A DNA stretch of 64,000 nt from NCBI GenBank assembly GCA_045630385.1, contig JAZQTA010000057.1, positions 14,952 to 78,951 of the forward strand. Direction: 5' to 3'. Under the pieces are notes generated by a model, which saw only the letters and a program-made list of their open reading frames with translations, was not told the origin of the DNA and did no database searches. Both the position numbers and the translations under genes were made by a program. The DNA is from Eubacteriales bacterium. Lineage in GTDB: Bacteria; Bacillota; Clostridia; Oscillospirales; CAG-272. Positions 60,415 through 63,400 of this stretch are shown here, piece after piece. Every line of letters begins with the position of its first letter. Within the stretch, counting starts at the first letter, position 1.

Positions 60415-63400
60415 GTGAAAAAGAGAATATTGTCCCTGTTTCTTTCCTTGATTATAATCTTGGACGTTTTCGCCATTCTTCCGCCGCTTCGTTTGGGCGC
60501 GGAGGACAGTGAACCGACGCAGGAGCAGGAACCCAATGAAGACTATATTGAGGGCTTTGTAACGCTTACCTATGATGGCGAGGATCACGTCGCTATGCAA
60601 AAGGGTGACAAGCTTTACGCCTTTACGGAGATCGACGACTCGCTTGACCGGCAATATGCTCGGTATGCCTGGGAGATCCAATCCGGTGAAGACAGATGGG
60701 CCACCGTCAGCGGCTACGTATTCCGCTACGCCATTATCACGGATGCCCTGCTTTCCAATGCCGCCATCATCGACGGCGCGGCACATCTGCGCTGTATCGT
60801 CACGATTGGAGAGGATAAGTATGTCAGCAACGTGCTGAAGGTGTCTCTCTCCGAGACCAAAACGGAAGCCTCCGCCATGGCGAGCGGACAGGTTCTCCCC
60901 CTATCCGCGGATGCATCGGAGGAATCGGATCTGTTTTCGGCTGACGAGCCGACCATGGATGCCTTCCACATCGTTATCAACTACACCTACCGCCACGCAG
61001 AGGCGGCTCCCGGTCTCGATCTGAACGGCAAGAATGCCGCCAACGTATTTACGGTTACGCTTCCCGACTATACCAGCTATACCGGTACGGTCGCAACCCC
61101 GCCCGAGATCGGATACCTCCCCTACGTTACGATCGATCAGGCGGAATACGTTTTGGGAACGCCATCGAAAGCGGATTATATCACGTATGACGGCGTGGAC
61201 TATGTCCTGGCCAACAGCATTGAGTTTGTTGAGCAGTCCGAAGACGTAACGATTAACGTATACTTTATCCCCCAGCAGGTTACCTTCCGCGTCAAGATCT
61301 ACGAGCAAAACCTCTACGATGATGAATACACCCTGGTGCAGACCATCACGAAGACGGGCGTCGCCAACGCCGCAGTCGGCGAAAATCATGATACGCCCCG
61401 CACAGGCTTCTCTCCCCTGTATTACGATGAAAAGCTCTCCATCGACGAGGACGGCTCCTTCATCCTGGACATCTACTACGATAGAAACTATTATCTTCTC
61501 GACCTGGATCTGAACGATAAAGGCGATGCCTTCGGCGTTGTAAACCACTACGTTCGCTATCAGACCACTGTGGTTCTCCCGCCGCCGACCCGTCCCGCCC
61601 ATTCCTTCTTAAACTGGGAGCTGATCTCGGTGAAAAGCGATCTGAAGAGCGCGGAGGAGGTCACAGAGCACAGCTATCCCGCGACAGCGGAAAGCGGATA
61701 TATCATCCATTCCCTTGAGCACAATCTGGTCTACAGAGCCCATTGGTCGGAAGGAAAGACCTCCTATACAATCATTTACTGGCTGGAAAACGCAGAGAAT
61801 GACGGCTTTACGCTGGATAGCTTTGATGTTGTGAGCGACGTGAATCCGGGTACGAAAGTCAGCGCGACGGACAGTCTTGATATCCCCGACAAAAGCTGCT
61901 TCACCTTCAGTGACAAGCTTTCGGACAAGGAGGTCACCGTCTCCTCTGACGGAACAACGGCGATCAACGCCTATTATCTAAGAAATTATTACACCTACAC
62001 CTTCAAGGGCGCGGCAGCCTGCATCACCAAGGAGCACACGCACTCCGATGCCTGCCTGATGGGCAACTGCACGATCGAAAACCACGCGCATACCGCCGCC
62101 TGCGGCAATGCCGATCTGATCTGCGGAAAAACGGAGCACGTGCATGTGGACGAATGCTGTACGATAACCGAGCACGCGCACGACAGCACCTGCTGTAGCA
62201 TCGCCTACCACGTGCACGGCACGGGCGCAAACAGCGACTGCACAAAGCCCGTGCATGAAAGGCACCACGACACCTGCTATTCGAAAAACGTGCTGACGGA
62301 TGCGGATGTTCTGACAAACAACAACCAGAAAAAAGCATACTCGACTCTGAAAAGCAAGATCACGGGTCCGCTGAACGGTTACGTTTACCGTATCAGACTC
62401 TCCAGAAATTCAACGATCTATAACTTCTTATACGTACACGAGCACTGGTTCTACCTTGGTACGAACAGCACCTACAACAACGTGAATCCGGCGACCGGCT
62501 CAAGCTTCGCCAACCCCGCCTCGGCTGCAAACTCCTATTCCTCGGCCGCGGCAAAAACCATCTGCGGCTACGAGATACACACGCACGGCGACGGTAACTG
62601 CACCTGTCCCATTACCGAGCACGATCATACGTCGGGATGCACCTGTTCGATCACCCGCCACGTGCACGGCGAGGGAGACTGCGATAACTCTAAGTGCGGC
62701 CAAGAGCAGCACCGCCATAACACGAACTGCTACACGCATAACTGTGGAAAGACGGCACATACGCACGGAGGAAACTGCGTGAGAACCTGCCAGCAGCAGG
62801 CGCATACGCACTCCTCGCGCTGTAGCTCTCCAAGCGATAGCCAGAATATCTTCCTGGAATTCAAGGCAAAATACCAAGCCGATATATCCGCAATATGGCG
62901 CCGCGTTTGGGAGATCTTCCCCAACGGTGAGCGCTGGGATCCCAGCACGTATTTCAGCGAGGTTCTCGTTTACGTTCCCTTTATGACCCCCGCAAGCATC
63001 ACCTTTACGTCCAACACCAGCTCGAACGCGACTTACACCATCAATTATTACCTTGAAGCGCTCGGCACGACCGAAATCGAGTATAAGGAGAAATACTTCG
63101 ATCTGAATAACACCGTAAAGGCCAACTACAGTTATCTGACGACCAAGGAGGACTTCTTCGATATCCTCGGCTTTACGCAGTTTGAATCGGATCCTGCCGC
63201 CTCGGGCGGACAGATCAAGGATAATGACCTTAACGTTTCTCTCTACTACGAAAGAAACGAATATCCTCTCGAATTTGTCAGCCTTGGCACCACGCTTTCG
63301 CCCTACACCAAGGTGCTGAAATATCAGCAGCCCATCGGCGCTTCCTTCGAATTGATGCCGGAGGATATCCCCTATCCCTCCAGCAAGGAAAGCGGCGCGA

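Follow-up and report, generated by a model that had tools for sequence, protein, structure and literature searches.

We analysed a window of 64,000 nucleotides of contig JAZQTA010000057.1 (assembly GCA_045630385.1, Eubacteriales bacterium) and describe here a segment rich in Cys and His (62020-62823, + strand; residues 536-803, 268 amino acids, aa) within the product of a gene for a giant secreted protein. Our reading, held with moderate confidence, is that this segment forms a two-armed antiparallel ladder of Zn(Cys2His2)-type knuckles that projects a small tip domain. The segment contains 23 of the 29 Cys of the complete protein (P0001), and its 23 Cys and 28 His compare with 5 Cys and 19 His in the other 927 residues encoded in the window. 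It displays 12 strict HxH motifs, and 0 of 10,000 shuffles that preserved the composition reached this number. At the DNA level there is no tandem repeat, and the knuckle motif did not occur elsewhere in the 64-kb window in any of the six frames.

The segment had been singled out in an initial annotation of this DNA. Its frame assignment was right, as the translation of 62020-62823 gives exactly the sequence that it reported and contains no stop, and its count of 12 HxH and 23 Cys is confirmed here. It also assigned six HxH motifs to each of two blocks. This holds for block 2, but in block 1 only five are strict HxH and the sixth is an H-x2-HH variant (VHERHH); the remaining strict HxH (YVHEHW) falls inside what had been taken for a spacer, has no flanking Cys and keeps its second His in only 7 of 26 relatives. 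The unit-to-unit period, claimed to be 12-14 residues, measured 12-18. Moreover, the supposed spacer is not a linker, since AlphaFold2 (AF2) models it as a confidently folded domain, and the idea of two independent arrays was not borne out: there is one arm-tip-arm module, with length-matched arms that are apparently paired antiparallel. Its parts, and those of the domain that hosts it, are the following.

61987..62007, + strand: strand beta-1 of the host Flg_new-like domain (aa 525-531, ..YYTYTF..; AF2 strand E6-12); the module leaves the host just after it
62020..62277, + strand: arm 1, six knuckles; 11 Cys and 13 knuckle His, each conserved in 23-26 of 26 close relatives
62020-62055, 62068-62103 and 62122-62157, + strand: arm 1 units u1, u2 and u3
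62158-62193, 62194-62241 and 62239-62277, + strand: arm 1 units u4, u5 and u6, the last with three conserved His
62278..62562, + strand: tip domain (aa 622-716, ~95 aa); one helix and four beta-strands in AF2
62563..62823, + strand: arm 2, six knuckles; 12 Cys and 12 knuckle His, each conserved in 21-26 of 26 close relatives
62563-62601, 62605-62640 and 62644-62682, + strand: arm 2 units u1', u2' and u3'
62695-62730, 62743-62778 and 62788-62823, + strand: arm 2 units u4', u5' and u6'
62824..63018, + strand: remainder of the host Flg_new-like domain (aa 804-868, ..IFLEFKAKYQADISAIW..ITFTS; AF2 strands E293-300, 321-324 and 343-348, predicted local distance difference test, pLDDT, ~89-91)

The arm-tip-arm cassette sits between strands beta-1 (…YYTYTF) and beta-2 (IFLEFKAKYQADI…) of the Flg_new-like domain, that is, in its first beta-hairpin loop. 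In the relatives, the insert is preceded by a conserved Y-x-R-N-x-Y-T-x-T-F motif and followed by a conserved K-Y-x-x-D-I motif. The host domain is likened to Flg_new by its strand motifs and AF2 strands only, and the hidden Markov model (HMM) does not detect it. The AF2 model of the P0001 region was built without metal from a 71-sequence alignment, and a second, independent AF2 model was obtained for a distant relative with three units in each arm (3/3). The pLDDT of the tip domain was 93-98 in the P0001 model and 87-97 in that of the distant relative. It has the core motif N-G-x-V-Y-R...Y-x-[FY]-[LI]-Y-[VI]-x-x-x-W-[FY]-Y-x-G and the conserved residues G655, W678 and Y687, and the tip-domain HMM matched 120 of the 196 family proteins. 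The arms that flank it are 86 aa (arm 1) and 87 aa (arm 2) long in P0001.

Knuckle units and their putative ligands

The unit, C-x4-H-x-H-x3-C, has 12 residues and the ligand order C-H-H-C. Its relatives were found through a search with the whole protein, which retrieved more than 100 full-length relatives of P0001; a word-indexed homology search with the 268-aa segment alone retrieved none. In the 120 proteins from the whole-protein search there were 752 HxH motifs, 666 of them with Cys on both sides, and C-x4-H-x-H-x3-C was the dominant arrangement (369 cases), with C-G-K-E-E-H-T-H-T-D-S-C as the consensus. The linkers between units have 0-6 residues (CC, CxC, CxxxC and often C-Y-x-x-x-C). 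Across 26 close relatives (down to 46% identity), conservation was 0.98 for the knuckle Cys and 0.97 for the knuckle His, as compared with 0.61 for the other arm positions. Two His of the alignment that are outside the knuckles are poorly conserved (7 and 11 of the 26 relatives), and for lack of conservation neither the HEH of the tip domain nor the His of a CYTHNC linker was accepted as belonging to the motif.

Three further observations concern the number and nature of the ligands. First, when a ligand is replaced in the 26 relatives, which is rare, the new residue is often one that can also bind metal, with three changes from His to Cys and four from Cys to Asp. Second, Cys609 is common to u5 and u6, and this is offset by the third His of u6, invariant in 26 of 26 relatives; the 23 Cys and 25 knuckle His thus amount to 48 ligands, or 12 x 4. 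Third, some distant relatives (P0037, P0095, P0098, P0099 and P0102) carry in the same loop a lone complete C-x4-H-x-H-x3-C with all four ligands kept, and the knuckle is therefore self-sufficient. These are the features that four-ligand metal sites would give, and they are hard to explain by a disulfide knot. On this evidence, which comes from sequence comparison, we consider that the knuckles are probably metal sites; the preference of the initial annotation for metal ligands over a disulfide knot is favoured by the conservation of both His and Cys, the substitutions, the 4 x 12 count and the lone knuckles.

The opposite explanation is that the Cys close loops by disulfides, either within a unit or between neighbours, to build a knotted rod in which the apical HxH would be free for weak contacts with metal, haem or another ligand, or for pH sensing. 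We believe this to be unlikely. It would agree with the Cys pairs that bracket each loop, with the CC, CxC and CxxC junctions, which are also seen in disulfide-rich domains, and with the export of the protein. However, it leaves without explanation that the knuckle His are as strictly conserved as the Cys, that ligands can be swapped from His to Cys and from Cys to Asp, that an extra invariant His makes up for an odd Cys total, and that both His persist in the lone knuckles. In addition, the hosts are metagenome-assembled genomes (MAGs) of gut anaerobes. Gut anaerobes usually have no extracytoplasmic disulfide-forming systems, and their habitat is a reducing lumen.

Probable pairing of the two arms

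The numbers of units in the two arms were equal in 78 of the 110 single-tip proteins, while permutation gave a mean of 25.9 and 0 of 10,000 permutations reached 78. Among representatives at 50% identity, the arms were equal in 26 of 35 (permutation mean 7) and within one unit of each other in all 35, and the matched counts spanned 2/2, 3/3, 4/4, 5/5, 6/6 and 7/7. The lengths of arm 1 and arm 2 were correlated across relatives (r = 0.85). The spacings between units correlated when the arms were compared in mirrored order (rho +0.32) and were anticorrelated in parallel order (-0.46), and 0 of 2,000 within-protein shuffles reached the observed value. Non-ligand identity was 0.23 between arm 1 and arm 2 of the same protein and 0.26 for the same arm between proteins. 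Concerted evolution of the arms was rejected, as the value within proteins is no higher than that between proteins, and the absence of a DNA repeat led us to reject a recent tandem duplication as well. Since the arms are not recent copies of each other, their matched counts imply coordinated gain and loss.

Two relatives, P0107 (aa ~520-760) and P0110, carry the whole 3/3 cassette in another host loop, inside a MucBP-like domain that precedes the usual site. The two ends of the cassette must therefore be adjacent, and from this placement it behaves as a transferable loop-insertion module. The structure models point in the same direction. The sole AF2 beta-bridges inside the P0001 arms are at mirrored positions (22/278, 46-49/254-256 and 75/223, with index sums of ~300), which in the model would correspond to a register of unit i to unit 7-i. 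In the second model, the linkers C-YTLT-C (77-81) and C-YALT-C (168-172) are paired, and so are positions 60/184. Finally, in family members whose arrays have no tip, the knuckles come in pairs, whose two members are connected by a stereotyped hairpin turn (C-[YFRL]-D-E-x-G-x-L-[IV]-C), and such a pair would be a one-rung version of the arm pairing. We regard it as quite probable that the two arms pair antiparallel as a hairpin.

The mechanism that we propose is that of a single arm-tip-arm module, inserted in the first beta-hairpin loop of the Flg_new-like domain, in which each arm would consist of six autonomous mini-sites C-x4-H-x-H-x3-C. Each site would most probably use two thiolates and two imidazoles to wrap one divalent metal ion in tetrahedral coordination, Zn2+ being the likeliest ion for such a 2S+2N set. 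The arms would run antiparallel, rung by rung, with unit i beside unit 7-i, and the inter-knuckle linkers C-Y-x-x-x-C would make short beta-bridges. Zipped in this way, the linkers would yield a rigid stalk, a two-stranded 'metal ladder' that is flanked on both sides by knuckles and has a length set by the number of rungs, and this stalk would project the small beta-rich tip domain from the body of the 1,721-aa secreted protein. The tip domain would be the probable ligand-binding (adhesive) element. In a reducing habitat, the metal sites would stand in for disulfides, taking the role that these have in aerobes. Among the functions that the initial annotation had listed, which included metal-dependent adhesion or crosslinking and metal scavenging or storage, the structural rod is the one favoured by the evidence. 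Going further, it is possible, although we put it forward only tentatively, that these proteins represent a new class of extracellular metallo-repeat in which the 12-residue Cys2His2 knuckle is the smallest autonomous block of self-zipping 'zinc ladder' stalks, rigid, adjustable in length from 1 to 7+ rungs and built by gut anaerobes with metal sites instead of disulfides, which could be placed in surface loops for the display of binding domains.

Several points weigh against the ladder. The arms have a pLDDT of only 55-80 in the P0001 model and of 41-79 in the second one, with predicted template modelling scores (pTM) of 0.41 and 0.45, and they are nearly devoid of regular secondary structure. 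Such low order would be expected of metal-dependent loops in a model that lacks metal. Ligand geometry and beta-bridge partners are inferred only from DSSP positions in the AF2 models. Nine of the 35 representatives differ by one unit between arms, which may in part be due to degenerate units missed by the regular expression. The family sequences share ancestry, so that the permutation statistics overstate independence and the spacing pattern is possibly in part inherited. A simple single hairpin does not account for proteins with two tips, such as P0125 (4-6-4) and P0128 (6-3-5). Lastly, for the tip domain no relative of known function could be detected, and the surface display of the giant protein is an assumption, since no anchor was detected.

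Database searches, distribution and other architectures

The initial annotation did not recognise the segment as a named domain, and our searches agree: it had no match in Pfam, NCBIfam or the PDB sequences and no fold match in the PDB by Foldseek. Neither block 1, block 2 nor the whole segment matched any family at E <= 1 in Pfam-A 2025 and NCBIfam 20.0, and the knuckle regions of the all-knuckle or array-rich relatives P0147, P0156, P0171 and P0186 matched none either. Comparison with PDB sequences produced nothing meaningful for the all-knuckle P0156 and block 2 (E <= 10) or for the tip-domain profile, and the best Foldseek E value against the PDB for the two AF2 models was 0.58. Neither Pfam nor the PDB had a match to the tip domain. 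When 31 diverse tip domains were scanned against Pfam, there were only scattered sub-threshold matches, such as the WXXGXW repeat in 4 of the 31 (best E = 0.009), which we rejected as an identification. The literature was also searched for an earlier description of the knuckle motif, and nothing relevant was found. The knuckle repeat is thus undescribed in the databases searched; a repeat-built projection stalk of a Gram-positive exported protein is of an already known kind.

A HMMER scan of 1.84 billion protein representatives yielded 81 matches, nearly all of them in proteins of 1,400-3,200 aa. When one genome per GTDB species was scanned, 80 loci with an array match were found, almost all of them labelled as MAGs of uncultured Clostridia, Eubacteriales, Oscillospiraceae, Acutalibacteraceae or Faecousia from ruminant, deer or human gut.

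The family includes architectures other than that of P0001. Two tip domains in series were observed in P0121, P0124, P0125, P0128, P0129, P0132, P0138, P0143 and P0178, with unit counts such as 9-1-8, 4-6-4, 6-3-5 and 6-2-6, and these proteins may be branched or nested stalks. Tip-less N-terminal arrays (~600 aa) of 20-27 knuckles were found in P0147, P0153 and P0171, with the pairs set apart by acidic or Pro-rich linkers. P0147 and P0171 carry in addition pAdhesive_15, an ice-binding-like adhesive domain, and a match to an LPXTG-type anchor, and P0171 also has Cna_B; the Gram_pos_anchor score was 21.5 bits for P0171, above the cutoff of 20, and under it for P0147 (18.7) and P0186 (16.1). Knuckles were also present in MucBP proteins, namely P0186, with its sub-threshold anchor match, and P0198, which has VWA domains too. 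P0156 (548 aa) is made up of knuckles nearly throughout, and the tip-less arrays of P0199 and P0205 accompany an N-terminal hydrophobic anchor ending in ...ALILPAITLE. Three-knuckle inserts without a tip, CTKTEHSHSDSC-CKYGGTSITHWWHDDSC-CKLGLSNHTHNDNC, occur in P0111, P0114, P0117, P0119 and P0120 (aa ~450-500), and their atypical middle unit (H-W-W-H) may act as a turn.

The giant gene, its operon and other possible functions

The gene that encodes the module lies on the + strand, directly downstream of a signal peptidase gene and four small genes.

56835..57521, + strand: SipW-like (archaeal-type) signal peptidase I, first gene (TIGR02228, 71.1 bits vs cutoff 51.85; Peptidase_S26 match)
57654-58235, 58267-58854, 59132-59839 and 59849-60403, + strand: four small TasA/BsaA/camelysin-like genes with A-Y-F/L-T SipW-type signal motifs
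60415..64000, + strand: giant secreted protein gene, 1,195 of its 1,721 codons in the window, cut off by the window end
60415-60501, + strand: Sec-type signal peptide of the giant protein (aa ~1-29; N-terminus ...LPPLRLGA/EDSE)

The giant gene starts with a GTG at 60415, seven bases downstream of an AAGGAGG ribosome-binding site, and its frame is stop-free in translation and open to the end of the window. P0001 is the complete product (1,721 aa) and is 100% identical to the part encoded in the window. The initial annotation called it a surface protein. The Sec-type signal peptide supports export, but neither LPXTG nor any other anchor was detected: P0001 has no Gram_pos_anchor match and its C-terminus reads ...GYVPISPKAD, and its 526 C-terminal aa, beyond the window (aa 1196-1721), showed no LPXTG, transmembrane anchor or recognised wall-binding domain. 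Nor does the protein look like a SipW substrate, as it has no TIGR04088 match and its N-terminus is an ordinary Sec-type signal. As a speculation, it is perhaps held on or near the TasA-like fibres. Listeria-Bacteroides repeats (Flg_new/TIGR02543) are present downstream of the Cys/His module, at aa ~997-1125; PF09479 scored 32.6 bits with the in-window protein (cutoff 27) but only 25.9 bits with the full-length one, and TIGR02543 scored 22.1 bits (cutoff 20.95). A second His-rich patch, HVQHPGGLPEHEHPGYNDDDH (63628-63687, + strand; aa 1072-1091), has one HxH and no Cys and is outside the knuckle system. An antisense open reading frame of 393 aa with a GTG start (62500-63681, - strand) overlaps arm 2 and the downstream domains; we treated it as a shadow and not as a gene, given that more than 100 relatives conserve the frame on the + strand.

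The small genes at 57654..60403 encode proteins with Peptidase_M73 and TIGR04088/TIGR04090 matches, TIGR04088 scoring 37.3 and 21.9 bits (cutoff 19) in two of them, and with the signal peptidase and the SipW-dependent signal peptides the cluster belongs to the SipW/TasA-type fibre operons. Among the 80 related loci, many of which are truncated, a SipW homologue was found in the flanks of 61, two TasA-like genes in 54 and a homologue of 59849-60403 in 71. The homologue of this last, 184-aa TasA-like gene is upstream of the giant gene in the clade of the window and also in L001, L002 and L004, and just downstream of it in most other loci (L007, L016, L025 and others, ~3.2 kb past the array match). 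The gene order of the operon has therefore been rearranged between clades. The genes at 56835-60403 plus the giant gene have the look of a TasA-type fibre operon, so far uncharacterised, in which gut Oscillospiraceae-like bacteria also encode a giant accessory protein.

This context bears on the other functions that could be imagined for the sites. One is metal capture or storage, in which the 12 sites would reversibly take Zn, Ni, Co or Cu from the gut lumen, to pass it to an uptake system or to buffer it, the look of a stalk being secondary. An exported Gram-positive protein with many repeated, exposed His-rich motifs recalls Pht proteins in this regard. However, there is no adjacent metal-transporter gene, the conserved neighbours being SipW and TasA-like fibre genes, and the matched arm lengths, the folded tip and the insertion in a loop would have no purpose in storage. 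Moreover, Cys2His2 sites are typically tight structural sites. We thus find metal capture an improbable main function.

Still less probable, in our opinion, is an intermolecular metal zipper, in which HxH and Cys of separate molecules, or of the protein and the TasA-like fibres, would share ions and create metal-dependent crosslinks between cells or within the matrix. Each unit holds a full set of four ligands and a lone complete unit persists in distant relatives, the matching of arm 1 and arm 2 fits a self-pairing module and not an open zipper, and the TasA-like proteins have no comparable Cys/His motif. These points stand against the location of the gene within a biofilm-fibre-type operon and the precedent of the zinc-dependent homophilic association of Aap repeats (PMC9802226, PMC3110253). 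As for a redox chain, with Fe or Cu centres or Rieske-like 2Cys-2His clusters carrying electrons along the stalk outside the cell, we give it hardly any credit. Sets of two Cys and two His also coordinate Rieske [2Fe-2S] and CuA centres, and here there are twelve regularly spaced sites, but C-x4-H-x-H-x3-C is unlike the Rieske (C-x-H...C-x2-H) or CuA motifs, no redox family of Pfam was matched, and no cytochrome or cluster-assembly genes are among the conserved neighbours.

Significance

Should the knuckle ladder be correct, it would represent a new structural principle for bacterial surface proteins, a stalk made of tandem, laterally paired metal knuckles and not of Ig-like, helical or disulfide-rich repeats. 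Dense Cys2His2 sites would occur here in an extracellular setting, where they are rare, and they would account for the way in which strict anaerobes, usually unable to rely on disulfides, stiffen small extracellular modules. The rigidity of the stalk and adhesion could then respond directly to the availability of luminal zinc, and zinc supply would bear on the adhesion or the matrix architecture of gut Clostridia that are abundant yet uncultured (Oscillospiraceae, Acutalibacteraceae and Faecousia MAGs). Protein engineering could also use the 12-residue unit and the arm-tip-arm cassette as a compact, length-programmable scaffold. Furthermore, the motif is simple enough for a database family to be defined from it, and at least 81 protein clusters (50% identity) that now lack a description of this region would then be annotated.

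Comparison with known systems

Like zinc knuckles and fingers, the unit has four Cys/His ligands in a dozen or so residues, of which only the ligands are strictly conserved, and a C-H-H-C ligand order is also found in the CHHC finger. No Pfam zinc-finger family was matched, and the unit does not belong to the classical C2H2 or CCHC types: CCHC is C-x2-C-x4-H-x4-C and C2H2 is C-x2-4-C-x12-H-x3-5-H, as opposed to C-x4-H-x-H-x3-C here. C2H2, CCHC and CHHC proteins are intracellular binders of nucleic acids or proteins, whereas the knuckle unit is extracellular, tandem and apparently paired. It is thus not a C2H2 or CCHC finger nor, in all likelihood, a CHHC finger, because ligand order, spacing and location differ.

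The topology of an arm, a tip and a second, repeat-matched arm resembles the A-V-P stalk of the streptococcal antigen I/II proteins (SpaP/SspB/AspA), in which the chain leaves the body, forms a head and returns, and the outgoing and returning repeats associate into a stalk by which the head is projected (PMC3178794). The likeness is in topology only, as no antigen I/II domain of Pfam was matched and P0001 does not belong to that family. In the antigen I/II stalk an alanine-rich alpha-helix and a polyproline helix are wound together as the arms, whereas both arms are strings of Cys2His2 knuckles in P0001, whose head is a ~95-aa domain unlike the V region and which carries no LPXTG anchor.

The polyhistidine-triad (Pht) proteins of streptococci are likewise exported by Gram-positive bacteria and carry a short His motif, H-x-H being part of it, in several copies. 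In PhtD there are five HxxHxH motifs, which are believed to bind one Zn2+ apiece, and Zn2+ is handed from PhtD to AdcAII; the copies in Pht bind one Zn2+ each, at a tetrahedral site in a short beta-rich unit (PMC3842936). Membership in this family is not supported, since the motif differs and there is no Pfam match. The Pht motif HxxHxH uses a distant Glu as the fourth ligand, has no Cys and belongs to three-strand units of ~20 residues spread along the protein, in contrast with the 12-residue Cys/His unit described here. Likewise, Pht genes are linked to adcAII and zinc uptake, and the giant gene is linked to SipW/TasA-like genes and not to adc.

Lastly, Aap and SasG are 'periscope' stalks with a variable number of repeats and with zinc in repeat association (PMC9999234, PMC9802226). 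They share with the giant protein the principle of a variable-repeat stalk of a Gram-positive protein that projects an N-terminal or tip adhesive domain, which in our case is the presumed role of the tip. However, Aap and SasG are built from G5-E units of ~128 aa in single file with zinc between molecules, whereas here the units would be 12-aa knuckles that pair within the molecule, the presumed metal being an integral part of each unit.

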